Assembly: GCA_052326585.1 (NCBI GenBank)
Contig: JBKQLU010000044.1
Span: 9,299 to 73,298 of the forward strand
Origin: Desulfobaccales bacterium
GTDB lineage: Bacteria; Desulfobacterota; Desulfobaccia; Desulfobaccales; 0-14-0-80-60-11
Direction of reading: 5' to 3'
Length of the DNA stretch: 64,000 bases
The notes under the pieces are model-generated. The model was not told where the DNA came from, did no database searches, and saw only the letters and a list, made by a program, of their open reading frames with translations. Shown here in pieces: positions 23,895 through 55,801 of this stretch. Both the position numbers and the translations under genes were made by a program. Position 1 is the stretch's first letter. Each line of letters begins with the position of its first letter.

Positions 23895-24056
23895 ATGTGC
23901 TGTAACAACAAAGATAAACATGAGCACGAACACGCCCATGGGGTCGAGACCCATGCCCACGACGGCCACGAGCATAGGCATGAGGCCATCGTCCATAGCC
24001 ATGAGCATACCCACGACGAGGGCCATCACAGCCACGAGCATAAGTGCTGCCAATAA
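23895..24056 (+). CDS. 53-aa histidine/cysteine-rich metal-binding peptide (Hpn-like)
   Basis: My own translation gives MCCNNKDKHEHEHAHGVETHAHDGHEHRHEAIVHSHEHTHDEGHHSHEHKCCQ*. It has 21 His and a CC pair at each end. Strong RBS (AAAAGGAGGTGATACCGT-ATG), a consensus promoter upstream and a terminator immediately downstream. It is below the 60-aa cut-off of the ORF track. Confidence 0.7.
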   Translation: MCCNNKDKHEHEHAHGVETHAHDGHEHRHEAIVHSHEHTHDEGHHSHEHKCCQ

Positions 24057-24057
24057 C

Positions 24058-24146
24058 GGAAAGCCACGGGTCCGCGGAAAATTAGGCCACGAAGGCTTTA
24101 TCTGGTCTGAAGACCGGAGGAGCGTTCGTGGCTTTCCCTTTTTTCT
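24058..24146 (+). terminator. Long two-tier hairpin plus U-tract terminator. It belongs to the GCCAYGAAGG...CRTGGCTTT element family.
   Basis: The outer stem GGAAAGCCACG/CGTGGCTTTCC encloses GGCCACGAAGG and an inner GGTC-tgaa-GACC hairpin, followed by CTTTTTTC. Confidence 0.65.
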
Positions 24147-25384: not shown

Positions 25385-26260
25385 CTAACCATTGTTGTCC
25401 AGATTCCGTTTCGTCTTGCCTGGGCCATTTATAAAGCAGACTTCTTCCAGCACATGCCTTGCCTGTCCGATGGTGAGCGGAAGGCGTTCCGCTTCCAGAC
25501 AGCCTTGCTTCCTGAGTATTTCAATCAAATGGGCAACCCTGGGCAGCCGCAGGCCGATCTTTCGGATAATATCCTTCTGGGCGAACACCTCCGCCGTGCT
25601 ACCCGAAAGGATGATTTCTCCTGCATTCATCAGATAAACCCGATCCGCCAACAGTGGGATGATATCTGCATCGTGGGAAGAGAATATCAGCGTGATGCCC
25701 ATTTCCTTGTTGATTTTGTTGAGCAGCCCCACGAGACTGCTTGCGCCTTGGGGATCAAGCGCGGCAGTTGGCTCATCCAATACGAGTACGTCGGGCTTCA
25801 TGGCAAGAACGCTGGCCAGAGCGACTCTTTTCTTCTCCCCCTGGCTCAGATTGAGCGGGCTCTTCTCGCTGTAGCCACATATGCCCACGGCCTCGAGAGC
25901 CCAATTGACCGCATGGTCCAGCTCCTTTCCGGTGACCTGCATATTCATTAGCCCATAGGCCACTTCCTGGCGCACGCTTGCATTGAAAAGCTGGTCATCC
26001 GGATCCTGGAAAACCATCCCGACCTTGGCGCGTATCCGATATAAGTTCTTTTTTTCAACCAACAGTCCGTCAACATAAACCCTGCCGGAGGAGGCCAGTA
26101 AAAGGCCATTAAAGGTGTTAAACAGCGTAGATTTTCCTGCACCGTTCGGTCCAATCACCGCAATCCGTTCGCCTCTTTCGATTTTCAGGCTCACTTGACG
26201 GAGTGCTACGAATCCGCCCGCATATGTGTAGCAAACCTCCTGGACATCGATAAGGCTCAT
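25385..26260 (-). CDS. cbiO: Cobalt ECF/ABC transporter ATP-binding protein CbiO
   Basis: Walker A GPNGAGKST, signature LSQGEKKRV, Walker B VLVLDEP. Operon position is after cbiQ. Confidence 0.85.
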   Translation of the reverse strand: MSLIDVQEVCYTYAGGFVALRQVSLKIERGERIAVIGPNGAGKSTLFNTFNGLLLASSGRVYVDGLLVEKKNLYRIRAKVGMVFQDPDDQLFNASVRQEVAYGLMNMQVTGKELDHAVNWALEAVGICGYSEKSPLNLSQGEKKRVALASVLAMKPDVLVLDEPTAALDPQGASSLVGLLNKINKEMGITLIFSSHDADIIPLLADRVYLMNAGEIILSGSTAEVFAQKDIIRKIGLRLPRVAHLIEILRKQGCLEAERLPLTIGQARHVLEEVCFINGPGKTKRNLDNNG

Positions 26261-26274
26261 TGCTGTTTCCTCTC

Positions 26275-27054
26275 CTAAACCAAATAGTTCATTGTCAGAA
26301 CCAAGAGCGGAAAGGCAGTCAAAAGCAGGCCCAGGCGCAAATCCGGGGAGGGAACCGGCCCCGTAAAATAGGCCGGAACCATAATCTCCTCACTGTAGCC
26401 CCGCGAGACCATGGCATGGTATATTTTTGTGCTGCGGTCCAGGGATTTTGTCAGGACATGTATGGCGATGTTTCCGACATTACGGATCCGCTCCATCCAA
26501 GAGAGCCTGCGAAATGTCCTGCACATCTGGGCATGGCGCATATTGCGAGCCACTTCAGCCATGATGAAAACATAGCGGAACATCATGTCTGCAATATCTA
26601 CTATGATGCCCGGAAGCTTGAAGATGCGCAAAGTCTCCAGGATCTCCACCATGGGCGTGCTGCATGAAAGCACGCAGGCCATCGTCACCGCCGCCATAAT
26701 CCGCAGCATAATCAATATGCCGCGCCAGATACCCTCGGAATAGATCACCAAAGGAAAAGGCTTCGTGAGCAAGGTCGCCAGCGGATGGCTGCCATTGGTA
26801 AAGAGCAGGGTAAGGAAAACCAGCCAGGCGACTCCGAAGGGGATGAACAAACGTAGAGCCAGGAGGCGCCAGGGTAGACGCAACGTAGAGAATATGGCAA
26901 TGGCAGCCACCCATAAGGCGGCTGCCAAATACCAGTGTCTTACAACCGCGGCAACAATAATGGCAACCAGGAAAAACACGGTCTTCACACGCCCGTCTAG
27001 GCGCCGCAATGGCGTGTCCAGAATACCGACCGATTTGAAAAAATCTAGATCCAT
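26275..27054 (-). CDS. cbiQ: Cobalt ECF transporter transmembrane component CbiQ
   Basis: 259-aa membrane ORF between cbiN and cbiO. N-terminal LD.R.K pattern (RRLDGRVKTVFF). Confidence 0.8.
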   Translation of the reverse strand: MDLDFFKSVGILDTPLRRLDGRVKTVFFLVAIIVAAVVRHWYLAAALWVAAIAIFSTLRLPWRLLALRLFIPFGVAWLVFLTLLFTNGSHPLATLLTKPFPLVIYSEGIWRGILIMLRIMAAVTMACVLSCSTPMVEILETLRIFKLPGIIVDIADMMFRYVFIMAEVARNMRHAQMCRTFRRLSWMERIRNVGNIAIHVLTKSLDRSTKIYHAMVSRGYSEEIMVPAYFTGPVPSPDLRLGLLLTAFPLLVLTMNYLV

Positions 27055-27059: not shown

Positions 27060-27425
27060 TTACATACCTTTGTCCTGCGGTGTTTCCTCTTTCCCGGCAT
27101 TTTTACCGAAGAGCACGGTCCACTGGTGCCCCACAATTATTCCTACGAAGAAATTGGCGATGGAAAAAGCTCCGACCTCGGCGTCCCCCGGAAGCTCAAC
27201 GAACGGATGAGATTTGCTGCCGGCGATCTCGGATGCCATGGCATTGACTTTATCGTCGGTGCCGTTGCCTTCCATCTTGTGACTGGCCATGTACTTGCCG
27301 GATATGAATATGCCTGTCAGGAAAATGAACATCACCAGTAGCATCACTTTAGAGAAGCTGTCAAACCAGTCAACGGCAGGTTTCTGGGTCTTCATCGTTT
27401 CAGCGGGCATACTAGCTCCTTTCAA
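27060..27425 (-). CDS. cbiN: Cobalt transport protein CbiN
   Basis: Small two-TM protein with GTDDK...EI...ELPGDAEVGAFS between the TMs. It overlaps the cbiM stop. The start is uncertain. Confidence 0.65.
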   Translation of the reverse strand: MKGASMPAETMKTQKPAVDWFDSFSKVMLLVMFIFLTGIFISGKYMASHKMEGNGTDDKVNAMASEIAGSKSHPFVELPGDAEVGAFSIANFFVGIIVGHQWTVLFGKNAGKEETPQDKGM

Positions 27426-28095
27426 TTATTGCTTTTTCGCTCTCCATCAAGACGCCGGGGATCAGATCCGGGCGCCTGGCGACCATCACCTGAACCACCA
27501 CCGCGGTGAATATCGCCTCCACAATTGCCAAAGGAAGCTGTGTAGGGCCGTAGCCCATAAAGAATATCAGCCACTGCTTAATTAGCGGCACATTCCCGTG
27601 AAGGCTGATGGCAAGCTGCAAAGCACTGACCAGATAAGTGGCAAGGTCACCGAAGAATCCAGCCAAACCCGCCGCCAGCCAAATCGGGGAACCAAACATC
27701 CTGAAGAGTTTCCAGATAAAGAAGCCGATAAACGTACCCGCAATTCCCATCGAAACGGTATTGGCGCCGATCGTCGTTATCCCGCCATGTCCAAGAAATA
27801 TCGCCTGGAAAAATAGGACGATGGCGGAAATAACAACTGTGGCGAAGGGGCCTACGATAATCGCAGCCAGCGGAGTACCGCAGGGATGAGAGCACGATCC
27901 GGTCACGGGTACTGGCAGGTGCATTGCCGAAATCACGAACACGGCTACTCCCACCATGGCGAGAAACGGCTTATAATACAAATTTTCCTTAACCCTTTTT
28001 TTGATTTCCATGACACCGGGCACAATCATTGCTGCTGTGGCGGCATACCAAACGGCACACGCCTGCGCAGTTAAGATGCCATCTTCAATATGCAT
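27412..28095 (-). CDS. cbiM: Cobalt/nickel ECF transporter substrate-capture component CbiM
   Basis: Begins MHIEDGIL (the metal-ligating MHIxEG N-terminus of CbiM/NikM). 227 aa, polytopic. RBS AAAGGAGGAGCAAA-ATG. Confidence 0.85.
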   Translation of the reverse strand: MHIEDGILTAQACAVWYAATAAMIVPGVMEIKKRVKENLYYKPFLAMVGVAVFVISAMHLPVPVTGSCSHPCGTPLAAIIVGPFATVVISAIVLFFQAIFLGHGGITTIGANTVSMGIAGTFIGFFIWKLFRMFGSPIWLAAGLAGFFGDLATYLVSALQLAISLHGNVPLIKQWLIFFMGYGPTQLPLAIVEAIFTAVVVQVMVARRPDLIPGVLMESEKAIIERS

Positions 28096-28647: not shown

Positions 28648-28946
28648 CAAAAAAAAACCTTGGGCCCGTGTGGACCCAAGGATTGCACCCAGTTTGCTTG
28701 ATCCCTGGCTGGCTGAGGAGATTTGCCATCTCTCCGCAGCCACTGCCCTCCCAATGCCTCGTTGGGGCAACAGTTCAGCTTACAGGCAGGTCTTCTGATT
28801 CCCGGATCTTTCTATTCCCTGCGCCTTCCCGTCCTCTTAAGAAAGGATAGTGGCTCTGTGCAGGTTTCGTCCCCGGTTACAGCGGCGGGACCACGCCGGT
28901 TTTACACCGGCTTCCCTTTTAAGCCCCGAAGGGCGCCTGTATGCTC
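28648..28946 (-). promoter_or_regulatory. Cobalamin (AdoCbl) riboswitch with terminator expression platform
   Basis: The minus strand reads ...AAAAGGGAAGCCGGTGTAAAACCGGCGTGGTCCCGCCGCTGTAACCGGGGACGAAA...GAGCCACTATCC...GGACGGGAAGGCGC...AATCAGAAGACCTGCCTG (B12 box). It is followed by CCTTGGGTCCACACGGGCCCAAGG plus T9 (28648-28681). Confidence 0.85.
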
Positions 28947-28957
28947 AATTTTATTGC

Positions 28958-29231: not shown

Positions 29232-31463
29232 TCAAAAGTGGGCGGTCAGCGCGAGACGGAAAGTGCGCGGCTCTGCTGCATGATACGTGAAGTCGTTGAC
29301 GCCTTGGGCCGGCTCCCCCGGCAGCCGGTTGGCGTAATAGTAGGTGATATCGGGGGCTTTCGTATTGAGAAGGTTAAAGATATCTCCTTCGATCTCCCAG
29401 GTCGGGTTGATTTTGTAAATGAGGTTAAAGTAGAGCAGAGTGGTATTGCGGGACCATTCGCTGCCGTCCTGGACGAGAGGGCGGGGGCCGAAATAGCGCA
29501 ACCGCAGGGTGGAGGTAAAACCGTAGATATCGTGCACCGTGACTCCCGAGTTGATAATCATGCCCGCGGCCTCGGGGACGTAACCTCCTCCGACGGGGTG
29601 TCCGCGGTAAAATGCCTGGGATTGGGCAAAATCGGCATCGATCGTCAGCCACTTCGTCGGTGTGTAATAGTTCGCCCACTCTACGCCATAGCGGCGACTG
29701 GGGCCAGTCGCTTCGGTCGTTCCCGTATCTCCGTCGAACACCAGTTCGGAATCGAGGTCGAGCACCCAACACGTCACCGTGCTTTGCAGGTTCGGGATGG
29801 CAAGCGTGCGCACGCCGACCTCGCCTCCTTGCGAGCGCGGCAGCGGCTTGGCCCTGCTCAGCTGGAGGCCGGTGGTCGGATCGAGGGTGGTGTTCGCGCC
29901 GCGCGCGTCGTTGGAGTGGAAGCCTTGGCCGGCGTTGAGATAGAACTCCGTCTGGTCCCAGGGGCCGAAGATCGCGGAAAGTTTCGGCTCCGGGACCGTG
30001 GCCAAGACAGTGCCGCTATTGTTGGAAAGGTAGGTTTCGTTACGCATCATGTAGAAGTCCTGGCGATAGCCCGCAACGGTGCGAAACCACGGAAGCCATT
30101 GTATCTTGTTCTCGAAGTAGGGCGCGGCGCTGGGTTCCTCAACATTGTCGACCCGGACGACGCTGATCACCTCGCGGTTCATGGTGTGAAAAAGACCGTC
30201 GTGGATTATGTCGTCGCGAATGTCGAGCCCGAGGGTGTTTTGCATGGGAAAGTTGCCCCAATTGCCGAACCAGGTGCGGGTGGCTTTGAGTCCCTGCACC
30301 CAGCGGGTGTCCCTTTGCTCGAACTGGTCCCCATGGACAGGATCATTCAAGAAAAAGGTGAAATCATTCCAGAGACCCATATTGTAATAATAAGCATATG
30401 CCATGATTTTAGTCGCGGAGTTATTACCGGTCTGGTGCCATTCACCCTCCAGGGTATAGCGGTCCGTAAAACCTCCGTCCGTCGGGGAGAGGTTTCCGAA
30501 ACGCGAGACGAGCCCTTCCGCCACGGCGCGCTCAGGTATCTGGTTGGTCGCAGTCCACGTGGGGGCGTTATAGCCCATGGCGGTCACGCTAAAGCCCTCG
30601 CTCTTGGTCCCTTGGCTATAGGTCATTACTCCATTGTACTTCATATAATTTTCGGGGGTTACCCATGGCCCGTCGGTGTGCACTGTTTCCAGGGCAAAGA
30701 GGAGGTTGCCCGGCCCGAGCTTCACCGAGTCGGCCAGCAACCCCCGCTCGTAGTTCCAGCTTCCGTATTCGACTTTGGCAATCCCGGTGGGAAGCGTCTT
30801 AAAGTAGTCAATGAATACAGAGCCCGCGGAGCCGAAGTCGCCCACGTTTGCGAAGTAGGGTCCTTTCTGGTAGTCAATTTTCTGGATCAATTCAGGGATG
30901 AGAAAGTTGAGATCCGTGTACCCTTGTCCATGGGCGTTCGTGGGCAGGTTGATGGGAACCCCGTTGACAAAGACGGCTATGTCGGTGCCGTGGTCGAGGT
31001 TAAAGCCCCGCAGGAAGTACTGGTTGGCCTTGCCGTCAGCGCTATGCTGGGTGACGATGAGTCCGGGCACGGTCTCGAGGACCTCTCCGGGCCGCGAGAT
31101 GGGGAGCTGTTGTATTTCTTTGGAGCCAACCGTGCCCTGCGATGAGCTATCAGCAATGCCGAGCATACTGGTGCTGCGCTCCTCCACCAATATCTCGGGC
31201 AATTGCTCTGTGCCTTTTGGGAGCTGGCCAATTTCATAGGTAAAAGCCCCTGCGGCCGGCGCCCCGCCGGAGGTGCCCGCACCGGACGTTTGGGCTGGGT
31301 TCTTGGGGACCTGGCCCGCCTTAGCGGGAGAGGTCACCGCAGGGACAGTTTGCTCCGACACGTCCCCGGCGCTGGGGGTTCCAGCTTCCTCCGCAGCCCA
31401 GGCACAGGCACTCAGGGCTATCCAAACCATGCAAGTACAAATAAGAGATGCTGCCCTTGCCAT
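29232..31463 (-). CDS. TonB-dependent outer-membrane receptor
   Basis: 743 aa with a signal peptide, a plug region (GEVLETVPGLIVTQHSADGKANQYFLRGFNLDHGTD), a long beta-barrel and a terminal ...RLALTAHF. Confidence 0.85.
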   Translation of the reverse strand: MARAASLICTCMVWIALSACAWAAEEAGTPSAGDVSEQTVPAVTSPAKAGQVPKNPAQTSGAGTSGGAPAAGAFTYEIGQLPKGTEQLPEILVEERSTSMLGIADSSSQGTVGSKEIQQLPISRPGEVLETVPGLIVTQHSADGKANQYFLRGFNLDHGTDIAVFVNGVPINLPTNAHGQGYTDLNFLIPELIQKIDYQKGPYFANVGDFGSAGSVFIDYFKTLPTGIAKVEYGSWNYERGLLADSVKLGPGNLLFALETVHTDGPWVTPENYMKYNGVMTYSQGTKSEGFSVTAMGYNAPTWTATNQIPERAVAEGLVSRFGNLSPTDGGFTDRYTLEGEWHQTGNNSATKIMAYAYYYNMGLWNDFTFFLNDPVHGDQFEQRDTRWVQGLKATRTWFGNWGNFPMQNTLGLDIRDDIIHDGLFHTMNREVISVVRVDNVEEPSAAPYFENKIQWLPWFRTVAGYRQDFYMMRNETYLSNNSGTVLATVPEPKLSAIFGPWDQTEFYLNAGQGFHSNDARGANTTLDPTTGLQLSRAKPLPRSQGGEVGVRTLAIPNLQSTVTCWVLDLDSELVFDGDTGTTEATGPSRRYGVEWANYYTPTKWLTIDADFAQSQAFYRGHPVGGGYVPEAAGMIINSGVTVHDIYGFTSTLRLRYFGPRPLVQDGSEWSRNTTLLYFNLIYKINPTWEIEGDIFNLLNTKAPDITYYYANRLPGEPAQGVNDFTYHAAEPRTFRLALTAHF

Positions 31464-43354: not shown

Positions 43355-43480
43355 CTATCAATCATCCTTGCCAGTTAGCCTACCAAGCCTGTGGCAGATA
43401 TTTTATAATGAGCATAATTTTTTTTAACAATTCCTCAAAAGGGCTTGACATGACGGATTTAATTATTAACCTTCTTATAT
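43355..43480 (+). repeat. Conserved upstream region of the riboswitch loci, copy 1. It begins CCTTGCCAGTTAGC..AAGCCTGTGGCAGAT and contains TTGACR -35-like elements.
   Basis: Aligns with 54664-54787. The exact promoter hexamers are uncertain. Confidence 0.6.
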
Positions 43481-43577
43481 CCCTGAAAAAGCCAAACCCG
43501 TCGCGAGGCGGGGACGGAAAGCCACGGGTCTCAGAAAGATAGCCGGGTTGCCTGGAAAAGGGGAGTCCGGTTTTTTT
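43481..43577 (+). promoter_or_regulatory. c-di-GMP-I (GEMM-I) riboswitch, copy 1, with overlapping terminator
   Basis: GCCAAACCCGTC-GCGA-GGCGGGGACGGAAAGCCACGGGTCTC...AGCCGGGTTGCC. The 3' arm CCGGGTT can instead pair with AGTCCGG, which is followed by T7. Confidence 0.8.
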
Positions 43578-43726
43578 ATGGGCTGGGGCGGGAGTCAGGC
43601 GCGCTAGAAGGTGCAGCCGCATAATATCGGCTTAAGCTTCCTCACAGTGAGGCATCCAGGGTTTAAGGGGCAGGTATGCTCAAATTATTGGAAAAATTAC
43701 TATGCCCGGCTTGGAGGTGACTCAAA

Positions 43727-44449
43727 ATGAAAAAGATGGTTTTCTGTATTGGGTTCCTCGCCGCTGCACTGGCGTTGAAACTGGCCTTTGTCTCACCGGC
43801 GCATGCGTCCAACTTGGTCTACAACGGCGACTTTGACAATATCGGCAACGTGTGGGTAAACAATACCGGGCTCGGGTCGGACGATTTGCATTACTCCAGC
43901 GCCACTAACATCCCGGGTTGGACAAATGTTCCGGGCTTTGCCAACGAGTTCTGGTTTAATGGGTCCTCGAACAGCTACTCCCTCACAGCAAGTCCTGGAA
44001 ACGGCAGCGTATATGGCGTAGACCTCACCGGACAAGCTAACAGCAAGCCCTACGGCGGTATCGAGCAGGCCATTTCGACGACACCTGGCGTTACGTACGT
44101 GCTGACCTTCGACCTTGGCGCCTCGACAGAATGGAATGGCACGGGGTTCGCCGCCGCCGCCCTCACCGCAAGCGCTACAGGCAGTATCCTGGATGCCTCG
44201 CAACTGTCCACGCTGGTTCCGACCGCCCTCAATCAATGGCAATCGGAGTCGCTAACATTCACGGCGGACAGCAGCGCGACCACAATCGAGTTCTTAGCCG
44301 ACTCGGACTACACCTCCGAGTACACCGGGCTGGACAATGTCAGTGTTAGTCCGCAGGGAGCAGTCGTTCCCGAACCCTGCACCATGCTCCTTTTAGGCTC
44401 TGGTCTGGCTGGGCTTGCAGCACTCAGAAAGAAATTCAAGAACGCTTAA
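43727..44449 (+). CDS. Secreted PEP-CTERM protein with a DUF642 / choice-of-anchor-C-like domain
   Basis: Signal peptide (MKKMVFCIGFLAAALALKLAFVSPAHA), SNLVYNGDFDN...GW start typical of DUF642, and C-terminal VPEPCTMLLLGSGLAGLAALRKKFK. Confidence 0.8.
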   Translation: MKKMVFCIGFLAAALALKLAFVSPAHASNLVYNGDFDNIGNVWVNNTGLGSDDLHYSSATNIPGWTNVPGFANEFWFNGSSNSYSLTASPGNGSVYGVDLTGQANSKPYGGIEQAISTTPGVTYVLTFDLGASTEWNGTGFAAAALTASATGSILDASQLSTLVPTALNQWQSESLTFTADSSATTIEFLADSDYTSEYTGLDNVSVSPQGAVVPEPCTMLLLGSGLAGLAALRKKFKNA

Positions 44450-44477
44450 CAGCATGTGCATAGAGTGATGTCTACGG

Positions 44478-44508
44478 GGCAGGGTCAGTTTAAGCGGCTC
44501 TGCCTTTT
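44478..44508 (+). terminator. Terminator after the first PEP-CTERM gene
   Basis: GGCAGGGTCAGTTTAAGCGGCTCTGCC plus TTTTAT. The U-tract is weaker. Confidence 0.45.
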
Positions 44509-44513
44509 ATGCT

Positions 44514-45002
44514 TTGGTGGGTTATATAGCATCAGATGTGATCTCGGTCATCGCACTAATTTCAATTAACAGCAACTTCACCGAGGTGAATACCTTTACG
44601 ATCAACGGCACCGCCTCCCAATATGTGGTCTTCAACATCCCCGACACCGGTGGACATGGATTCAACGGCAGTATCGTCCTCACAGGCGGGATCACCGCCG
44701 ACCACGTCCTGTTCAACTTTGACGCCGGCAACTACACAACCCTGTCCGGCGGGCAAACCTTGACGATCAGCACTAACGGCAATACAATCACAGGAATATT
44801 TCTGGACCCCAACGGGAATATCAGTATTGACAACTCGGTGATCGATGGGCGCGTCATTGGAGGAGATACCCAAGACTTCCAATTTGTCTCGGGCGCAGAA
44901 TTGTTCGCTCCTCCATCTACAGTTCCTCTGCCGTCCGCGGGGTTACTGTTCGGCAGTGGACTCCTGAGCCTGGTGGGACTTGGCTGGAGAAGGAAGAAAT
45001 AG
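44514..45002 (+). pseudogene. 5'-truncated PEP-CTERM protein (C-terminal part of a choice-of-anchor-A-like beta-helical domain)
   Basis: The ORF opens only 9 nt after the preceding terminator, uses TTG, and has no signal peptide. The body (VVFNIPDTGGHGFNGSIVLTGGITADHVLFNF...GIFLDPNGNISIDNSVIDGRVIGG) and tail (VPLPSAGLLFGSGLLSLVGLGWRRKK) are intact. Confidence 0.5.
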
Positions 45003-45036
45003 CTACTAAGCATATTTAATTCAACGGCTATGCCAG

Positions 45037-45066
45037 GGCGGGGCCATTGATGGCCCTGCCTTTTTT
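45037..45066 (+). terminator. Rho-independent terminator (PEP-CTERM family type)
   Basis: GGGCGGGGCCATTGATGGCCCTGCC plus TTTTTT. Confidence 0.65.
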
Positions 45067-45098
45067 GTTGCCGACTTAAAAATAAAAAAAGTTGATAG

Positions 45099-45150
45099 CT
45101 TGCCAGGAGTTGCGATTATCAATTGAGTGGGTAAAAATGTAGATATGGCT
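45099..45150 (+). repeat. CTTGCCAG box, copy C (more diverged)
   Basis: CTTGCCAGGAGTTGCGATTATCAATTGAGTGGGTAAAAATGTAGATATGGCT. Confidence 0.6.
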
Positions 45151-45285
45151 TAGATATATGGAGAGTTATTCGGCGGCGGTATCTCCAGTCAAGGCGAGGC
45201 CCCGATGCTCGGTTATTTTTAGATGATTAGATGTCCACTTTGGGTAGCAACCGTGTATATTTAAGAAATATAAGGAGATCGTCAC

Positions 45286-46173
45286 ATGATCCAACCGCGT
45301 AAGGGTGGGAAAAAGCAGAATTTCTCATCTTCCTGGTTGGCCAATGTCGTTAAAGAATTCTGCGCCACCTCTCCCGAAAACACCCTGAACCATGGTACCG
45401 GTGAACGGGCCTGGGAGGAGCCGCTGGTCGGCTTCTCTAATGGGGCCGACCCCCTCTATCTCCGCATCAAAGAGGATATCGGCCCGTTTTACCTCACTCC
45501 CATTGAGATCTTCCGGCAAGCCTTTCCTCAGGCCCAAACTCGTCCCGAAGACCTCACCGTGGTCTGCTGGATTTTGCCGCAAACTGCGGCCACCAAGGCG
45601 GACAATCAGCAAGAGAACACTTACCCGGCGGAGCGCTGGATCAGGACGCGGCATTTCGGCGAGATGTTCAATACAATACTACGCCGGCACGTGGTGGCGA
45701 CCCTGCAAAACGCCGGATTTGGCGCGATATCGCCGGTGGATGCGCCTTTCTGGTCGCGAGAAGTATCGCCGCGTTACGGCCTCGCCTCCCGCTGGTCCAT
45801 GCGGCATGCCGCACATATTTCCGGCCTGGGAACTTTTGGGCTCTGCGATGGACTTATCACTCCCCGGGGCAAGGCCGTGCGCGTCGGCTCGGTGGTGGCC
45901 AGGATTCCTATCCCGCCAACGGTCAGGCCATATACGGATCATCATGAATATTGTCTCCATTTTTCCCAAAACACTTGCAGGAAATGCATGAAGCGCTGTC
46001 CTGCCGGGGCGATTACGGAAGCCGGCCACGACAAAGACAAATGCCGGGATCATCTCCTTGAGGTGGGGGCGCACTATGGCAGGAAGGGCTTTCACTTTGA
46101 ACGCTATGGTTGTGGCCTCTGCCAAACCGGGGTGCCTTGTGAGTCCCGCATCCCGGTGAGAGAACGGGCTTAG
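45286..46173 (+). CDS. QueG-like / reductive-dehalogenase-related 4Fe-4S protein
   Basis: The C-terminal part carries two ferredoxin-type motifs (CRKCMKRCPAGAI ... CGLCQTGVPCE). The N-terminal domain resembles the DUF1730/QueG fold region. Confidence 0.55.
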   Translation: MIQPRKGGKKQNFSSSWLANVVKEFCATSPENTLNHGTGERAWEEPLVGFSNGADPLYLRIKEDIGPFYLTPIEIFRQAFPQAQTRPEDLTVVCWILPQTAATKADNQQENTYPAERWIRTRHFGEMFNTILRRHVVATLQNAGFGAISPVDAPFWSREVSPRYGLASRWSMRHAAHISGLGTFGLCDGLITPRGKAVRVGSVVARIPIPPTVRPYTDHHEYCLHFSQNTCRKCMKRCPAGAITEAGHDKDKCRDHLLEVGAHYGRKGFHFERYGCGLCQTGVPCESRIPVRERA

Positions 46174-46376
46174 TCTGGGAGCTGGCCGACGGCGAAAGGA
46201 TGGTGTCATGATTTTGGGATCAGTATAGCTATCTTCGGCGTCAGGCTTGAGATAGAAGTCGTACGGGAATCTGGTGGGCTTTTGGCCCGGTCTGGCTATT
46301 GGTCTTGGCTGGTTTCTTGAACACTTCAGGAGCTGTCTTCCTTGTTGATTCCTTATGCAGATAAGATTGCAGCTCC

Positions 46377-46405
46377 TTGACATCTAATGGATAGTGATTA
46401 TTAAT
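46377..46405 (+). promoter_or_regulatory. Sigma70 promoter of the Fur-family gene (TTGACA, 17 nt, ATTAAT)
   Basis: Hexamers read directly from the sequence. It overlaps the ORF-track start codon at 46394, which is therefore unlikely to be used. Confidence 0.55.
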
Positions 46406-46432
46406 ACAAAAAAAGTATCCGGAAGGATTTTT

Positions 46433-49082
<2,650 letters not shown>

Positions 49083-49254
49083 TCGTGGCATAAACGTCTT
49101 CGAGGGCTTCTGAAGCGTATTCTAAACTGCAAATCGGATGATCAGAAAGCGATAACCCCCACGAGCTGACGGATGTTTTCAACGATCAACGGAGGCTATA
49201 GCAACATATGAAGATGGTGTTTCAATATAGTCCCTCGCTGGCTCGCCCCTGTAA

Positions 49255-49431
49255 ATGCTGGCGGGCCAGGAGGGGCTTACCCTGTTAAAAATAGATTACT
49301 ATTATGTTGGCAAATGGGAGGTGAACGTCTCATCCGCGCCCCTATCATCCGTGCCCCGACCGGGTAGCGCGACGCTTCTATTTAGCGGCCTCCTGGGCCT
49401 GGCTGGTTGGAGGAGGTTCAGGAAGAGTTAA
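49255..49431 (+). pseudogene. Orphan PEP-CTERM tail fragment (58-codon ORF)
   Basis: My own translation gives MLAGQEGLTLLKIDYYYVGKWEVNVSSAPLSSVPRPGSATLLFSGLLGLAGWRRFRKS*. There is no signal peptide or domain body. Confidence 0.5.
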
Positions 49432-49460
49432 TCAGCCATTCCATTTCACGGACAAACCAA

Positions 49461-49490
49461 GGCAGTGTCAGTCATGGCTCTGCCTTTTTT
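49461..49490 (+). terminator. Rho-independent terminator (PEP-CTERM family type)
   Basis: GGCAGTGTCAGTCATGGCTCTGCC plus TTTTTT. Confidence 0.6.
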
Positions 49491-49515
49491 ATGGCCGCGT
49501 AAAAATGGTAAGTAA

Positions 49516-49550
49516 CTTGCCAGGATCAGCAATTATCAGTGGGAGGAAAC
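49516..49550 (+). repeat. CTTGCCAG box, copy D (3' part diverged)
   Basis: CTTGCCAGGATCAGCAATTATCAGTGGGAGGAAAC. Confidence 0.6.
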
Positions 49551-50008
49551 GACGGGGTTTGAGCCGTTCTTCCTTCCTTACACGAGCAGCCCAAGCAGCT
49601 ATGGAGCAGGAAAGCCGCAATTCCGCAACATAAGCTATGGCATAGACCCGAATAGCAACGAACCTATGGCGGCCTTTAAGCATCCCCAACTGGAATTGTA
49701 TTGTCTCCTGGGGGTAATTCTCGAATAGGTCAGACCCATTATCATCGGACATTGCCTTAGGCCAGCGCTAAGTCTCCCTTATGGCAAGTTAGTCGCTACT
49801 CTCGAATACCACACGCCACGTAGAGATCATTTGGCTGATAACCAGCCACCAGGCCCGGAGGTGGTAGGCCCATGTAGCCCCGGCTTTTCCTCTGGCTCAC
49901 CATGACCGGGCGGTGCCGGTCCGGGGTCCTTAAGCTCCAGGTGAGGTATCCAGAGACTGAGGAGTAGATATGCCAAAATTTTTGAAAAAATTATTCCCGG
50001 CTGGTCGG

Positions 50009-50070
50009 TTGACAAATTCCTTGAAATTTGTGCTATTATGCCTTCCACGAGGCAATTTGGCTACAAAAGC
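50009..50070 (+). promoter_or_regulatory. Promoter (TTGACA ... extended -10 TGcTATTAT) plus conserved initial transcribed segment, copy 2
   Basis: GAAATTTGTGCTATTATGCCTTCCACGAGGCAATTTGGCTACAAAAGC resembles 35836-35881. The ATG at 50038 lies inside the -10 region. Confidence 0.45.
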
Positions 50071-50148
50071 GGAAGCTTGCTGAAGTTAACCTCGGTGAAA
50101 AGGGTCTTTAAGATCACTTTTCGACGGTGGCGGTCAGAAGAGCAAATT

Positions 50149-51543
50149 ATGGTCCAGCGCTGTTTGATCGTTGCTGATGACCTGACCGGCGGGGCGGACA
50201 CAGGGGTCCAATTCTCCCAAAGAGGTCCCCGAACATTTTTTCTAATATCTGCAAACCTCACCAATCTCGATTTCCCCAAATACAGCCACAGTGACATCCT
50301 GGTCGTCAACACCGGTTCAAGAGGCCTGCGGCCCGGGAAGGCCTTCTCGGCTGTGGCGTCCGTCATGAGCACTTACGACAAGGCACTCTTCCCCATCATC
50401 TACAAGAAGATAGATTCGACCCTCAGAGGAAACATCGGGTATGAAATCGACGCCATACTGGAGAAAACGGGAATTCCAATGGCCTTCGTTGCTCCATCCC
50501 TGCCCGAGCAGAACCGGACCCTGGTCGGGGGCATCATGATGGTCGCCGGAAAGCCCGTCGCCTTGACGGAAATGGCCTGTGATGCTGTTTCTCCTGTCAG
50601 GGAGTCCCATATTTGCACGCTGATCCAGCGGCAATCCCGCCATCGCGTGGCCTTGATCGAACTCACCCAGGTGGCATCGGGTTGCAGACAGCTTAAGCAA
50701 GCCGTGCTGAAAGAAAAGAAAAAGGGGGCTCAGATCATCATCTTCGATGCAACCAGGCGCGCTGACCTGGCCCATGTTGCTGAAGTGGCCTTCAATTTGG
50801 ACAGGGTTCCCTTGCTCGTCGGTTCTGCCGGGCTGGGCGAGGAAGTGGCAAAGCAGATATGCTCGTCAGCCCAGGGCGGCTTCTTGCCATCTTGTGCGCC
50901 GGCAAAAGGGCCTTTCAGCCATTTTTTCATCATCAGCGGCAGCGCCTCCAGCGTCACTCACCAGCAACTGGAAGAGCTCGAAAAGAGCCTGGGGATCAGG
51001 TCCTTCGAGTTGGATCGATCCATTCTTTTGAGTGATAACTACAAAAGAGAAGAATACCAGAAGGACCTCTGCGGCCAGATAGCAGAGACACTCAGGCAAG
51101 GCCACGCTATCCTCAAGGTCTATTGCGGCGGGATTTCTGCAAGCGGTCCCCTTCGTCCTCCCATTCACGTCCGCATTACCCGTTTGTTGGGTTCCATTGC
51201 GTCGGCGGTGCTCCAACAATTTGCGGAAACCCTCAACGTGGATGGGCTGGCAGTGGTTTTGACCGGTGGCGAAACCGCGCTAAGCGTCCTGAATTCCCTT
51301 GGGGTCAAAGGGGTTGAAATCGATCGTGAACTAATAGGCGGGGTCGTGATAAGCAGAGTGCAGGATGGGATGATGGCAGGCCTTGCCGTGATTACCAAAG
51401 CCGGGGCCTTTGGAGCGAAGGACACACTGGAAAAAATCATAGAGATTGTCGGGACCGGACCTCACCGAGGGAATGCTTCGGGAGAAATGAGTAGTGAGGG
51501 GGTCTCCCGCACAATCGTAACGCCAGGGAGGATCGTTCTATGA
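50149..51543 (+). CDS. Four-carbon acid sugar kinase family protein (DUF1537; OtnK/DtnK-like)
   Basis: MVQRCLIVADDLTGGADTGVQF..., YKKIDSTLRGNIG, and the C-terminal nucleotide-binding half (LTGGETA). I chose the start at 50149. Confidence 0.8.
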   Translation: MVQRCLIVADDLTGGADTGVQFSQRGPRTFFLISANLTNLDFPKYSHSDILVVNTGSRGLRPGKAFSAVASVMSTYDKALFPIIYKKIDSTLRGNIGYEIDAILEKTGIPMAFVAPSLPEQNRTLVGGIMMVAGKPVALTEMACDAVSPVRESHICTLIQRQSRHRVALIELTQVASGCRQLKQAVLKEKKKGAQIIIFDATRRADLAHVAEVAFNLDRVPLLVGSAGLGEEVAKQICSSAQGGFLPSCAPAKGPFSHFFIISGSASSVTHQQLEELEKSLGIRSFELDRSILLSDNYKREEYQKDLCGQIAETLRQGHAILKVYCGGISASGPLRPPIHVRITRLLGSIASAVLQQFAETLNVDGLAVVLTGGETALSVLNSLGVKGVEIDRELIGGVVISRVQDGMMAGLAVITKAGAFGAKDTLEKIIEIVGTGPHRGNASGEMSSEGVSRTIVTPGRIVL

Positions 51544-52814
51544 CGCACCAGCACATCTTACTTCCGTACGGGAAAAAAACGGTCAAAGTGGCCATCCCCT
51601 CGGATAATCTGCTGGGAGTCTATTCCCCAAAGGACATTCCGGCCGTTGCGGACGTGAAGGGTGAAATCGTGCGGGCGCTGGCCCAGCCGATCCAATCCGA
51701 TTCATTGCGGGAGCTCGTCGCGGGGAAGAGAAAGGTGGTGATCGTAGCTGATGACAATACCCGATGCACGCCCGCGGATATCATCACGCCCCTTCTCCTG
51801 GACGAGTTCAATGCAGCAGGCGTCCCAGACGCCAATATTTCGATCGTCATCGCTCTCGGAACCCATCGGTTCATGACCGCGGAGGAGATTGTCCAAAAGT
51901 TCGGCAAGGAGGCCGTAAGCCGGGTGGCCATTAAGAATCACCCCTTTAGAGACCCCGGGGCCCATGTCGACGTTGGCACAACCGAAAACGGAGGAAGAAT
52001 CCAGGTCAATCGGGAAGTCTTTGAAGCTGACTTCAAAATTGGCATTGGCAGCATCGTACCGCATCATATCTGTGGCTTTTCAGGCGGAGCCAAAATCATC
52101 CAGCCAGGGGTCTCCGGCGAATCAACCACTGCCTATACGCACCTGCTCTCCGTCCGCGCCCCGCGTTCCTATCTGGGCATTCTGGACAATCCCGTGCGCA
52201 CGGAGATGGACGCTATTGCCCGCAGAGTAGGTCTCCACACCATACTGAACACGGTTCTGAACCGCCATGGACAGGTGGTCGGGGCCTTTTTCGGCGATGT
52301 GGAAGCAGCCTTTCGCGCCGGCGTCAAGCAGGCCTTGGCAATCTACGCGGTTGAGCTTCCTCAAGAAGCCGACGTGGTTCTTGCCAGCTCTTATCCTTGC
52401 GACCTCGATTTCTGGCAGGCGCACAAGACCCAGTATCCATCGGACCTGGCGGTCAAAGCGGGGGGCATCGTCATCATTCTCACCCCCTGTCAGGAAGGCA
52501 TCTCTCAGATTCACCGCGACATCCTCGATATCACCTGTCATTCCTCGACTCGGCTCCGAGACCTGGTTGCCTCCGGGCAGCTTGGCGATGAAGTGGCGGC
52601 GGCACTGGCAATCGCCTGGGCTCAGGTGAAAGAGCGCGAAGAGGTATTTTTCGTCTCGGATGGCATCTCAGCCTTGGAAGCGGGCAAACTGGGATTCACA
52701 CCCTTTGCGGACGTCCAATTGGCAGTCGATGAAGCACTGAAACGTATGGGGCCTGATGCCAAGGTGGCGGTCCTGACACATGCGCCGGATATGTTGCCAG
52801 TAATCAGACCCTAA
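51540..52814 (+). CDS. LarA-family (nickel-pincer cofactor dependent) 2-hydroxyacid racemase/epimerase homolog
   Basis: 424 aa: VVIVADDNTRCTP, ALGTHR, IVPHHICGFSGGAKIIQPG (with the Lys of GGxK present). The ATGA overlap with the kinase stop indicates translational coupling. Confidence 0.8.
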   Translation: MTHQHILLPYGKKTVKVAIPSDNLLGVYSPKDIPAVADVKGEIVRALAQPIQSDSLRELVAGKRKVVIVADDNTRCTPADIITPLLLDEFNAAGVPDANISIVIALGTHRFMTAEEIVQKFGKEAVSRVAIKNHPFRDPGAHVDVGTTENGGRIQVNREVFEADFKIGIGSIVPHHICGFSGGAKIIQPGVSGESTTAYTHLLSVRAPRSYLGILDNPVRTEMDAIARRVGLHTILNTVLNRHGQVVGAFFGDVEAAFRAGVKQALAIYAVELPQEADVVLASSYPCDLDFWQAHKTQYPSDLAVKAGGIVIILTPCQEGISQIHRDILDITCHSSTRLRDLVASGQLGDEVAAALAIAWAQVKEREEVFFVSDGISALEAGKLGFTPFADVQLAVDEALKRMGPDAKVAVLTHAPDMLPVIRP

Positions 52815-52905
52815 ACGGGGGTGCTGAAGCACTCTGTAGAACTGCACAACTCATGGCTGTTCAGACAAGACCTGCAGCGAATAAACACTAAAGGGAGGTC
52901 GTAAA

Positions 52906-54225
52906 ATGGCGACTACAACATTTTCCGAAGAAAAATTAATCCGCCGGGTACAGTGGAAAATAGTGCCTTATGTTATGGTTCTTTATATCATTTGCATTCT
53001 GGACCGTGTGAATGTAGGATTTGCGGCTTTGCAGATGAACAAGGCACTTGGCATTGCTGCCACTGTGTTTGGTTTGAGCGCAGGTATTTTTTTCATCGGC
53101 TATTTCCTTTTCGAGGTTCCAAGTAATGTCATTCTGCACAAGGTTGGCGCCAAGAAATGGATCTCAAGAATTCTATTGAGCTGGGGCGTAGTTGCAATCC
53201 TCACAGGTTTCGTTAACTCAGCACTCCAGCTCATCATTCTCAGATTTCTGCTTGGATTTGCTGAAGCCGGGTTTTATCCCGGTATCATTCTTTATTTGAC
53301 ATTTTGGTTTCCGTCCAAGCACCTGGGTAAAACAGTGTCCTATCTGGTTGTCGGCATGGCTTTGGGCAACATTATTGCAGGACCAATTTCCGGCTGGATC
53401 ATGGATCATGTGCACTGGCTTGGTATCGACGGCTGGCGCTGGCTGTTCATAATCGAAGGCATACCCGCCATACTGTTTGGCATTGTTAATATTTTTGTCA
53501 TGGTTGATCGGCCGGAACAGGCCAAATTTATGACCGAAGAAGAAAAAAGCTGGCTGGTGACTCAACTGAAACGAGAGCATGAAGCAAAAAAGGATAGACT
53601 GCAAATCTCCAAATGGGCTGTATTCGGACATGGTCGTATTTGGCATCTAGCGTTCTGTTATGTTTGTTATTGCATGGCACTGTATGGACTGGGATTTTGG
53701 ATGCCTCAAATTCTTAAGTCACTTTCCAAGCTCCTGACTAATACGCAGATTGGGCTCATTTCCACAGTACCTTACATTTGTGCTGTTATTGTTATGTTGT
53801 TGGTAGCAAGACACTCTGACAAGACGTTGGAACGACGCTATCACGTCGCCGCTTCACTTGCACTGCCATTCTTCGGTTACATCGGCCTTAATATGACGGG
53901 CAACCTCTGGTTATCCCTGTTTTTTATTTGTCTAATCGCGATAGGAGTCTATTCATTCGTAGGAACTTTCTGGACATTGCCTGCTCTCTTCTTAACAGAA
54001 GCATCGGCGGCAGTGGGCATAGGCATCATCAATTCCACCGGTAATCTAGGCGGCTTTATCGGACCCTATGCTGTGGGCTTTATCAAGGACCTTACCGGCG
54101 GTTCGACCGCAGGCGGAATGTATTTCCTGGCAATTTTTGCCATACTTGGTGCTGTCGCAGTGTTACTCATACCGGCAAAAGAAGCTGACACCAGATCTCT
54201 AATAGCTGCAGCCAAGGGTGACTGA
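52906..54225 (+). CDS. MFS transporter, anion:cation symporter (ACS; tartrate/galactonate/phthalate-type) subfamily
   Basis: 439 aa, 12 TM. DRVNVGFAALQM after TM1 is typical of the ACS subfamily. G+C is lower, by eye. Confidence 0.75.
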   Translation: MATTTFSEEKLIRRVQWKIVPYVMVLYIICILDRVNVGFAALQMNKALGIAATVFGLSAGIFFIGYFLFEVPSNVILHKVGAKKWISRILLSWGVVAILTGFVNSALQLIILRFLLGFAEAGFYPGIILYLTFWFPSKHLGKTVSYLVVGMALGNIIAGPISGWIMDHVHWLGIDGWRWLFIIEGIPAILFGIVNIFVMVDRPEQAKFMTEEEKSWLVTQLKREHEAKKDRLQISKWAVFGHGRIWHLAFCYVCYCMALYGLGFWMPQILKSLSKLLTNTQIGLISTVPYICAVIVMLLVARHSDKTLERRYHVAASLALPFFGYIGLNMTGNLWLSLFFICLIAIGVYSFVGTFWTLPALFLTEASAAVGIGIINSTGNLGGFIGPYAVGFIKDLTGGSTAGGMYFLAIFAILGAVAVLLIPAKEADTRSLIAAAKGD

Positions 54226-54249
54226 GCCACTGCCTGGGCAGCATTTGGC

Positions 54250-54566
54250 GAGCACCAGGAAAGCACCCCACCCAGGGTTGATAAACGAAATGGCCTGACC
54301 GCGATCTGGCGGCGGGCGGCCCGGGTCCGCGAGGTCAACAGCCTCACCTGGGAAGAGGTAGATTTCCAGCGCCGGCAGGTGCGCCTCTGGACCCGTAAGA
54401 AACGGGGCGGACCTAAGACTCCGCGCTTGGTCCCATGAATGACCGGACCTTCCAGGCTCTAAAGCCGGCTCAATGGCGCCGGCAGCCTGGTTCGCCTTAC
54501 GTCTTCCCATGCCGCCGCGGACTATCCCAGCAGCACTTCTCGCAGCATATAATCGAGGCCGGCTAA
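54250..54566 (+). pseudogene. Tyrosine recombinase (phage-integrase family) fragment, frameshifted and 3'-truncated
   Basis: Frame A gives ...LTAIWRRAARVREVNSLTWEEVDFQRRQVRLWTRKKRGGPKTPRLVP*. The frame then shifts near 54436 to MNDRTFQALKPAQWRRQPGSPYVFPCRRGLSQQHF...*. The catalytic H-x-x-R...Y half is absent. Confidence 0.6.
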
Positions 54567-54663
54567 GAGACTTACGCCAAGGCTCCCCGAGTTTCATGGC
54601 ATCTGAGACGAAAAATATGGGGCCTGGAGGAGGATTAAATTTTAACACCATAATATCTTCAAT

Positions 54664-54787
54664 CTTCCATGATCCTTGCCAGTTAGCTTAGCAAGCCTGT
54701 GGCAGATCTTTTATGATGAGCCTAATTTTTTGTTAAAATTTCATTCAAGAGGTTGACGGATTTAAACCTCATGCATATTGTAAATAT
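54664..54787 (+). repeat. Conserved upstream region of the riboswitch loci, copy 2
   Basis: CCTTGCCAGTTAGCTTAGCAAGCCTGTGGCAGATCTTTTATGATGAGC...TTGACG, 17 nt, TATTGT. Aligns with 43355-43480. Confidence 0.6.
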
Positions 54788-54885
54788 ACCGCAAGGCCAA
54801 ACCTGCCGCGAGGTAGGGGCGGAAAGCCACGGGTCTCCGATTAAAGAGATAGCCGGGTTGCCGGGAGGCAATCCGGTTTTTTTTT
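54788..54885 (+). promoter_or_regulatory. c-di-GMP-I (GEMM-I) riboswitch, copy 2, with overlapping terminator
   Basis: GGCCAAACCTGCC-GCGA-GGTAGGGGCGGAAAGCCACGGGTCTC...AGCCGGGTTGCC. CCGGGTTGCC (54853-62) can instead pair with GGCAATCCGG (54867-76), followed by T9. Confidence 0.8.
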
Positions 54886-54964
54886 GTTTGGGAAGAATAA
54901 GAGCAATGGCTAAAGGGATTTAACTTCAGACAGACGGATCCGGACAACAAGAAAAGGAGGGGAT

Positions 54965-55600
54965 ATGCGGAAAAAAGCTTACCTGTTCTGTGTGTTAGCG
55001 GCGCTGCTAGTGGCGTTGCCGGTGGCGGCCCAGGCGGATATTGCCATCAATTATCCGGGAACCCCGGCCAACTTCTATTGGGATGGCATAACTGATATCG
55101 GCTGGAACTACACCCCGGCAACCACCATTACCGTAACCGAGATTCTAAGTACATTTCAAACCGCCAGTCCCACTAACAATGACACGACCCTCACCGTCGG
55201 GATTTATAACCAGGTGGCCGGCACCCTGCTTGAATCAGTCTCCTTTAACCCCTCCTTGGCTGGCGGAGCTCTCTTTACCACCCCGCTGACGCTGACGGGA
55301 GGAACCCAATACTTTATCGATTATTCTGGGTGGGCCCTGAATAATGAGACCGGGGTGAATTCCGAAGGAATACCTGGTGACGATGGTACTGTACCACCGC
55401 CAGGCGCAACATTACTTGCAGGTTATTTCGACAACAATGCCGCGGATCCCATTGCGTCAAGTACCTGGCCCGAGGCGGCGATCCTGGATATCGTCACCGA
55501 GACTGTCGTTCCGGTGGTCCCCTTGCCGCCTTCGCTGCTGTTGCTGGGCTCGGGCCTGCTGGGAATGGCCGGCTTCGGCTGGAGGAGGAGGAAAGCTTGA
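54965..55600 (+). CDS. Secreted PEP-CTERM protein (unknown N-terminal domain)
   Basis: Signal peptide MRKKAYLFCVLAALLVALPVAAQA, C-terminal VPLPPSLLLLGSGLLGMAGFGWRRRKA, RBS AAAGGAGGGGAT-ATG. Confidence 0.8.
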   Translation: MRKKAYLFCVLAALLVALPVAAQADIAINYPGTPANFYWDGITDIGWNYTPATTITVTEILSTFQTASPTNNDTTLTVGIYNQVAGTLLESVSFNPSLAGGALFTTPLTLTGGTQYFIDYSGWALNNETGVNSEGIPGDDGTVPPPGATLLAGYFDNNAADPIASSTWPEAAILDIVTETVVPVVPLPPSLLLLGSGLLGMAGFGWRRRKA

Positions 55601-55763
55601 GAGGAGGCAGTTCGGTTTGCAAGTAAGCTAACTGGAACTTGTCCCTGTTTCGGCGTCAGGATAGGCAACCTGATAGAATAGAGGGATACCTGGCGGGATT
55701 AATGCGTATAAAATTCATGAACTAAATTAAGGGTCCGCCCTTAAGCCAAGTTTCCCTCTTTGA

Positions 55764-55801
55764 CTGGCCGAGAACTCCCACTCCCGGCCAGTTTTATTTT
55801 T
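55764..55801 (+). terminator. Rho-independent terminator
   Basis: CTGGCCG-agaactcccactc-CGGCCAG plus TTTTATTTTT. Confidence 0.55.

Follow-up and report, generated by a model that had tools for sequence, protein, structure and literature searches.

What controls the secreted PEP-CTERM proteins encoded in a 64,000-nucleotide (nt) stretch of DNA from a Desulfobaccales bacterium (GenBank assembly GCA_052326585.1, contig JBKQLU010000044.1, positions 9,299 to 73,298 of the forward strand; this whole stretch is the window, and all positions below are counted from its first letter) is the question raised by two of its loci. PEP-CTERM proteins are abundant in environmental bacteria, and their regulation and function are poorly understood. 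Their genes mostly form single-gene operons behind long non-coding regions, part of which is accounted for by a PrsR site and a sigma-54 promoter with the rest left open (Haft et al. 2006; PMC1569441), and outside this PrsR/sigma-54 scheme most of these long stretches are without an assigned function (PMC1569441). Two upstream regions in the window carry a GEMM-I (class I cyclic di-GMP, c-di-GMP-I) riboswitch aptamer, and we place at roughly 80 % the probability that each locus is a self-contained cassette, comprising a conserved box, a sigma-70 promoter, the aptamer and a terminator, which switches a PEP-CTERM operon ON with c-di-GMP.

Comparison of the whole window against Rfam at the gathering thresholds, using cmscan, returned two full-length matches to the GEMM-I clan (CL00126), both on the forward strand, at 43,482 to 43,556 (copy 1; 73.8 bits, E 1.3e-15) and 54,787 to 54,866 (copy 2; 69.9 bits, E 1.7e-14), by which both elements are classed as GEMM-I aptamers. 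Each site has an additional, weaker CL00126 match above its own gathering score, hidden by clan competition. The two leaders are homologous at a level judged far beyond chance (75.6 % identity over 225 nt, 43,364 to 43,577 versus 54,672 to 54,883; blastn, E 7e-37), with no third leader copy found by blastn in the window and no other RNA family found in the copy 1 leader. A sequence-only reading that preceded this work had described two homologous leader regions of about 230 nt with GEMM-I aptamers; the strings it quoted lie exactly where it had placed them, and the blastn and cmscan results bear out both statements.

Hairpin 1 of copy 1 reads CC-AAA-CCCGUC-GCGA-GGCGGG-GAC-GG-AAA, and that of copy 2 has an identical layout with compensatory changes, both containing the 2-bp helix, AAA internal loop, 6-bp stem, GNRA tetraloop and AAA linker by which GEMM-I is recognised (PMC1950547). 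In the cmscan alignments the ligand contacts G20 (before the 2-bp helix), A47 (after it) and C92 (between P2 and P1) are found in both copies, as is the interhelical C44-G83 pair (numbering of the Vibrio cholerae Vc2 riboswitch), which is made up of the C of GAC or GGC and the G of AUAGCC; these contacts and the interhelical pair are those named in PMC4744006 and PMC5888326. Copy 1 combines G20, A47 and C92 with a GCGA tetraloop, the absence of a tetraloop receptor, and a C21-G46 pair in place of G21-C46. This flip occurs in both copies, is scored by cmscan as a compensated pair and is the sole departure of the window aptamers from the canonical core. Pairing in P1a is likewise kept between copy 1 and copy 2 through C-G to U-A, U.G to C-G and G-C to G.U changes, and compensatory changes in P1a also occur across the cassette homologues described below (pairs 160-173, 161-172, 162-171 and 163-170 of the RNAalifold alignment). 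Scanning of species-representative genomes for the flipped core yielded at least 119 stretches, and about 110 of the matches listed are real aptamers, mostly from Thermodesulfobacteriota and Campylobacterota. The compensatory swap that the sequence-only reading had suspected is thus a clean pair flip carried by some 140 natural aptamer copies, and the G21-C46 flip is best classed, from these alignments, as ordinary covariation.

Both aptamers run into a predicted intrinsic terminator on the forward strand. For copy 2 (54,851 to 54,885; -23.3 kcal/mol, z -6.2), the terminator scan found a perfect 12-bp stem (54,851 to 54,878), in which AGCCGGGUUGCC pairs with GGCAAUCCGGUU around a GGGA loop, followed by nine T residues (54,877 to 54,885). 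In copy 1 (43,541 to 43,577; -16.7 kcal/mol, z -2.74) the same AGCCGGGUUGCC pairs with GGGGAGUCCGGUU (stem 43,541 to 43,572), a duplex that includes two G.U pairs and is interrupted by one G.G mismatch, ahead of seven T residues (43,571 to 43,577). The 5' arm of the terminator, AGCCGGGUUGCC, is also the 3' strand of the aptamer, running from the 3' side of P2 through C92 into that of P1, and in the minimum free energy fold of the full leader of either copy the terminator forms in place of P2. Because the 5' arm of the terminator is the P2/P1 3' strand of the aptamer, both leaders are predicted to be ON switches, and the structure by which ON riboswitches are recognised, a GC-rich hairpin and U-run sharing a strand with the aptamer, is present in each. 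This platform is shared by 44 of about 105 related aptamers, where the arms covary (L028, L040, L068, L088 and L124), including CCGAGCUGCC/GGUGGUUCGG in L028, CCGGGUUACC/GGUAAUCCGG in L040 and CCGGGCUGCC/GGCAGCCCGG in L068. Alternative pairing of the aptamer 3' arm into terminators ending in T9 and T7, and the ON polarity that follows from it, had been proposed from the sequence, and both the local folds and the full-leader folds agree with this proposal.

A sigma-70 promoter is predicted upstream of each aptamer on the forward strand, at 54,753 to 54,781 for copy 2 (TTGACG-17-TATTGT; nine of twelve matches in the promoter scan) and, in alignment with it, at 43,450 to 43,478 for copy 1 (ATGACG-17-TCTTAT, weak), where it is preceded by a 5-nt TGACA/TGACG duplication (TTGACA at 43,445 to 43,450). 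In many unrelated GEMM-I loci a TTGAC element precedes CCAAACC by 44 to 50 nt, and this fixed distance points to a likely transcription start at the 5' edge of P1, predicted near 54,788 for copy 2. The promoter scan found no promoter-like sites on the forward strand between the terminators and the start codons.

The gene behind copy 1 (gene 1; 43,727 to 44,449, forward strand) encodes a 240-amino-acid secreted DUF642/choice-of-anchor C protein (PF04862, 37.6 bits) with the canonical PEP-CTERM tail VVPEPCTMLLLGSGLAGLAALRKKFKNA, which matches both PF07589 (25.1 bits; cut-off 20.7) and TIGR02595 (20.0 bits; cut-off 16). Gene 2, behind copy 2 (54,965 to 55,600, forward strand), encodes a 211-amino-acid secreted protein with the tail VVPLPPSLLLLGSGLLGMAGFGWRRRKA (PF07589 21.7 bits; cut-off 20.7), in which the motif is VPLP and not PEP, and which has weak matches to DUF4082, floc_PepA and VPLPA-CTERM. 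Sec signal peptides, read by eye from the sequence, were assigned to both N-termini (MKKMVFCIGFLAAALALKLAFVSPAHA/SN and MRKKAYLFCVLAALLVALPVAAQA/DI). With PF07589 above its cut-off for both tails, which have the PEP-like motif, hydrophobic helix and basic cluster of the class, the earlier statement that both leaders precede signal-peptide PEP-CTERM proteins holds. The two proteins have no blastp similarity to one another, their mature parts being unrelated, and no relatives with solved structures were found for either by sequence.

A further reading frame behind copy 1, absent from the sequence-only reading, encodes 162 amino acids ending in the PEP-CTERM-like tail TVPLPSAGLLFGSGLLSLVGLGWRRKK (ORF 3, for open reading frame; 44,514 to 45,002, forward strand). 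It matches TIGR04215 (choice-of-anchor A) below the cut-off and only over profile positions 151-246 of 255, the C-terminal third of the domain (E 4.8e-5), and lacks a clear signal peptide. Contigs L001-L006 have it annotated as a gene, and it may be a truncated one. A moderate hairpin (44,477 to 44,505) separates it from gene 1 and, together with the UUUUAU that follows it, forms a moderately terminator-like element (44,477 to 44,511, forward strand; fold of 44,450-44,520: -24.2 kcal/mol, z -2.15). The copy 1 unit is closed by a strong intrinsic terminator (45,035 to 45,072, forward strand; 12-bp stem and T-run, -29.5 kcal/mol, z -4.73), and the gene 2 unit by a terminator-like hairpin with UUUUAUUUU (55,762 to 55,800, forward strand; fold of 55,700-55,800: -27.9 kcal/mol, z -3.6). 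Gene 1, gene 2 and ORF 3 are the only three PEP-CTERM-tailed ORFs in the window. Among the ORFs scanned in the 64-kb window there are no exosortase (EpsH/Xrt) or exopolysaccharide (EPS) genes, as the sequence-only reading had already stated.

To what extent this association is general was addressed with a census of GEMM-I aptamers against PEP-CTERM genes, covering the loci of the flipped-pair aptamers in species-representative genomes among the matches listed. PEP-CTERM is the commonest Pfam family among the first genes downstream of these aptamers (11/78, E up to 0.01). When the tail motif was used as the test, about 15/78 aptamer-proximal ORFs were positive, compared with 16 of about 1500 other ORFs at the same loci (about 1 %), giving an odds ratio of about 22 (Fisher p about 1e-12) on denominators that are crude. 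Positive loci occur among the Thermodesulfobacteriota in Desulfatiglandales, Desulfobaccales, Desulfocapsa, Desulfobacula and Desulfolunaceae, and outside this phylum in the Gammaproteobacteria (Glaciecola and Oleiphilaceae) and in Candidatus Vecturithrix. On these counts the link between riboswitch and PEP-CTERM genes is real, widespread and strongly enriched. The sequence-only reading was aware of no description of it, but four c-di-GMP riboswitches beside PEP-CTERM/VPLPA-CTERM genes are listed for Methylophaga nitratireducenticrescens GP59 (PeerJ 2025; PMC12530212), where they appear as a table entry with transcript levels and without analysis of switch polarity or generality. No systematic treatment of the link was found in the literature; the sequence-only reading had the biology right and overstated its novelty.

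The best-conserved part of the duplicated module is a 58-nt box upstream of the promoter (copy 1: 43,366 to 43,423, CCTTGCCAGTTAGCCTACCAAGCCTGTGGCAGATATTTTATAATGAGCATAATTTTTT; copy 2, by alignment with copy 1: 54,674 to 54,731; both forward strand), some 60 to 115 nt ahead of the predicted start, which is 91.7 % identical over 60 nt, compared to 75.6 % for the whole module. The duplicated unit consists of the 58-nt box, sigma-70 promoter, aptamer and terminator. The core of the box, CCTGTGGCAGAnnTTTTATRATGAGC, lies about 100 nt upstream of the GEMM-I aptamers, and is found at the same distance upstream of a GEMM-I aptamer in a Desulfobaccales metagenome-assembled genome (MAG; L099, 2,354 to 2,411, reverse strand) that came up solely by way of its aptamer pattern. 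An exact-pattern scan located it in seven further contigs from Joint Genome Institute (JGI) metagenomes (L130-L136), six of which have TTGACA, aptamer and terminator downstream, and none of the six intact cassette homologues lacks either the aptamer or the terminator. The genes next after the cassette encode PEP-CTERM proteins in L130, L131 (same as L133 and L135) and L136, those of L130 and L131 being 35 % identical to gene 1 (blastp). What is new here, as judged from these sequences, is that the cassette is found again both in a Desulfobaccales MAG and on metagenome contigs, in most cases ahead of PEP-CTERM genes.

Several identities were considered for the box. A sigma-54 promoter was rejected on comparison with the motif described by Haft, as the TGGCAG-N5-TTAT stretch has no -12 GC, and a leader peptide was rejected, as the ATGAGC frame runs for 45 codons in copy 1 and meets a stop after six in copy 2. 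There are no inverted repeats in the box at a seed of 6, and the TGCCA...TGGCA dyad of the window boxes is not kept in L099. The remaining guess is a transcription-factor binding site at about -60 to -115. It is possible, although at rather less than even odds, that the box is the operator of an unnamed factor and that the whole is a portable two-input cassette (factor AND c-di-GMP) marking a PEP-CTERM regulon in a Desulfobaccales-related lineage.

Further features were observed around these leaders. The stretch just past the copy 1 terminator (43,580-43,640; GGAGTCAGGCGCG..GAA.GTGC.GCCG.ATAAT.TCGG) is conserved in the metagenome contig L134, in which the coding sequence beyond it looks different from that of the window; a TATAAT-like hexamer is present in it, with no recognisable -35 element. 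Tandem arrangements also occur: L099 has two aptamer-terminator units before a 63-codon ORF, a Desulfosudis oleivorans MAG (L122) has four tandem GEMM-I aptamers in one leader before a single 163-amino-acid secreted protein, and a Desulfobulbaceae MAG (L111) has three in one leader.

The aptamers, their contact nucleotides, the mutually exclusive terminators, the gene identities and the recurrence of this design and gene class in many genomes are computed results; we infer c-di-GMP as the ligand, the point at which transcription begins, the switching itself and whatever part the box may play. Transcription would most likely start a few bases 5' of the aptamer. At low c-di-GMP, AGCCGGGUUGCC would pair with GGCAAUCCGGUU in copy 2 or with GGGGAGUCCGGUU in copy 1 to form the terminator, and transcription would halt at the U-run. 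With c-di-GMP bound, the aptamer would keep the 3' strand of P2/P1, no terminator would form, and RNA polymerase would read into the gene, in each case the head of what is predicted to be a short operon for PEP-CTERM surface proteins, putative substrates of exosortase.

A number of observations weigh against this mechanism. Copy 1 is the weaker throughout, with a U.U mismatch in P1, the G.G mismatch in its terminator and a promoter that is a poor match, and its predicted start, itself a prediction, may clip P1. In Rfam, both copies score highest against the c-di-GMP-I-GGC variant family RF03167 (73.8 and 69.9 bits; gathering score 59). The Rfam check proposed earlier came out as expected for the clan, with CL00126 matches above threshold, and otherwise for the family, which is not RF01051; the RF01051 score of the window copies is not displayed, the second match of the same clan being masked by clan competition. 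We know of no validated ligand for the RF03167 variant family.

The aptamers could on this account sense a ligand other than c-di-GMP, either 3',3'-cyclic GMP-AMP (3',3'-cGAMP), as do GEMM-Ib-like aptamers, or an unnamed ligand of the c-di-GMP-I-GGC class. RF03167 is also the top family for 20/22 flipped-pair aptamers elsewhere (18 loci), and the flipped C21-G46 pair directly flanks both G20 and A47 and might contribute to such a change. The RF03167 model, however, has a conserved G at its position 37, the equivalent of A47 directly after the 2-bp helix, which is presumably what the middle letter of 'GGC' denotes. In each window copy the base here is A and earns no positive score, and the RF03167 label is for this reason no sign of a different ligand. 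Moreover, L151 (607-682) has a fully canonical core (GGGCAAACC...GACGCAAAGCC) on a short-P2, receptor-less scaffold and is nonetheless assigned to RF03167 (68.1 bits), while two flipped-pair aptamers from Gammaproteobacteria are assigned to RF01051 (L087, 64.0 bits; L106, 51.4 bits). The assignment therefore follows the receptor-less scaffold and not the binding site, as far as these alignments go, and the window copies were rejected as GGC variants. A scan of viral contigs for true GGC-type comparison sequences (GCAAACC...GGRCGCGAAGCC) gave only chance matches in coding DNA. An A at position 20 marks GEMM-Ib (3',3'-cGAMP) aptamers, a role of this position reported by Kellenberger 2015 and Nelson 2015. 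The base at position 20 is G in both window copies, in keeping with the ligand-discriminating G noted from the sequence, and in about 140/148 flipped-pair copies, the cGAMP-type A occurring in four only. Recognition of another ligand is consequently regarded as distinctly unlikely, and the window aptamers are placed in class I, within its receptor-less group with a GYRA tetraloop, with c-di-GMP as the probable ligand. As an observation of wider bearing, RF03167 out-scores the c-di-GMP-I model on receptor-less GEMM-I aptamers with canonical A47 (L151; 18 loci), and many of the elements annotated as RF03167 in genomes of Thermodesulfobacteriota are therefore probably c-di-GMP-I aptamers of the ordinary kind.

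The box raises two further alternatives. That it is more conserved than the aptamer-bearing module as a whole and is kept across species, together with the weakened P1, terminator and promoter of copy 1, would suit a minor or decaying riboswitch, especially in copy 1, with expression set by a promoter factor on the box and with leaky terminators. Yet the scores of both aptamers are far above threshold and neither has lost a ligand contact, copy 2 has its perfect 12-bp terminator with T9, and aptamer and terminator are co-retained in all six intact cassette homologues, and such a diminished role is judged improbable. Alternatively, the box might belong to a longer RNA leader and act as an anti-aptamer, pairing with the 5' strand of P2 (GCCUGUGGC with GCCACGGGU) as a second RNA-level input. 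RNAalifold on the seven cassettes does give box-P2 helices of 9 and 6 bp in all sequences, and some 25 nt ahead of the box each window copy has an ATAAT-like element. The energies of the box-aptamer duplex, however, are no better than those of shuffled boxes (z -0.2 to -1.9), the proposed pairs are almost all invariant and give no covariation support, a conserved sigma-70 promoter separates box from aptamer in each of the seven sequences and occurs at many unrelated loci, and neither L099 nor L130-L136 keeps the ATAAT upstream of the box. The anti-aptamer was rejected on the duplex energies and the intervening promoter, and a box acting as RNA appears highly improbable. The reading preferred here is a c-di-GMP-responsive ON switch preceded by a conserved box.

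Class and mechanism are known ones. In the 2007 GEMM work (Weinberg et al.; PMC1950547), 78/322 instances had terminators overlapping P2 in an ON design, a receptor-less 'type 2' scaffold with GYRA loop and short P2 was described, and GEMM ON switches were common in Geobacter and other delta-proteobacteria. The logic of the window loci is identical to that of these ON switches, the 5' arm of the terminator overlapping the 3' side of P2, and they differ only in their targets, the PEP-CTERM proteins, and in the upstream box. With Vc2 (RF01051) they share the two-hairpin fold, 2-bp helix, AAA loop, 6-bp stem, GNRA loop, AAA linker, G20/A47/C92, interhelical C-G pair and location in the 5' untranslated region, whereas they differ from it in their receptor-less 'type 2' scaffold with GCGA loop and short P2, in the flip of G21-C46 to C-G, and in a very short P1 of 3-4 bp. 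The receptor-less scaffold is common to RF03167 and the window copies, which have A where that model has G at position 37. The Methylophaga GP59 riboswitches are of the same class and have the same class of target, with several copies within one genome region, but they come from a gammaproteobacterium in which the target genes adjoin EPS genes, whereas neither EPS nor exosortase genes are near the window copies. Similarly, the PrsR/PrsK and sigma-54 system resembles the window loci in its one- or two-gene PEP-CTERM operons, in long non-coding regions (about 700 nt in the window) and in an upstream DNA motif conserved within a lineage; the window loci have neither a TTTACA-ended motif nor the -24 GG/-12 GC, and have a sigma-70-type promoter and a riboswitch instead. 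What the present analysis adds is the clarification of the Rfam label, the recognition of the flip as covariation, the widespread PEP-CTERM enrichment and the box travelling with the riboswitch.

Other elements of the window were noted as well. The approximately 10 kb between the two loci contain perR-katG, a threonate-kinase-like gene, a LarA-like racemase and a major facilitator superfamily (MFS) transporter, all unrelated to the riboswitch finding; the perR-like gene, for a Fur-family regulator, comes immediately before katG (catalase-peroxidase), with slight overlap (46,394-49,082, forward strand). A divergent pair of fluoride riboswitches (11,796-11,875, reverse strand, and 11,981-12,050, forward strand; 34.7 and 40.7 bits) precedes a Na+/H+ exchanger family gene (10,530-11,777) on the reverse strand and a dynamin-family GTPase (12,097-13,866), an unusual gene behind a fluoride riboswitch, on the forward strand. 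A cobalamin riboswitch (28,768-28,955, reverse strand; 114.5 bits) is upstream of cobalt uptake and chelatase genes (cbiM, 27,412-28,095; cbiQ, 26,275-27,054; an ATP-binding cassette (ABC) ATPase, 25,385-26,260; cbiK, 24,524-25,309), with a TonB-dependent receptor gene (29,232-31,463) just beyond it. Adjoining the cobalt genes is a 53-codon His-rich ORF (23,896-24,057, forward strand) with flanking Cys pairs (MCCNNKDKHEHEHAHG...HSHEHKCCQ), a TTGACA/TATAAT promoter close to consensus and a long terminator hairpin, which may encode a small metal-binding protein. Part of that hairpin (24,056-24,072) shares a 17-nt identity with aptamer copy 1; it was rejected as a third aptamer, with no Rfam match even at E 5, and the identity appears to be a coincidence.

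For annotation, an RF03167 label should not by itself be taken as a sign of changed ligand specificity. For the biology of the PEP-CTERM proteins, a class I c-di-GMP riboswitch stands directly before their genes in at least three phyla, with strong enrichment, and these targets fit the known theme of "environment, membranes, motility". The logic suggested by this arrangement is that the signal for a sessile or biofilm state would license, at the level of transcription elongation, the production of exosortase-sorted surface or matrix proteins.

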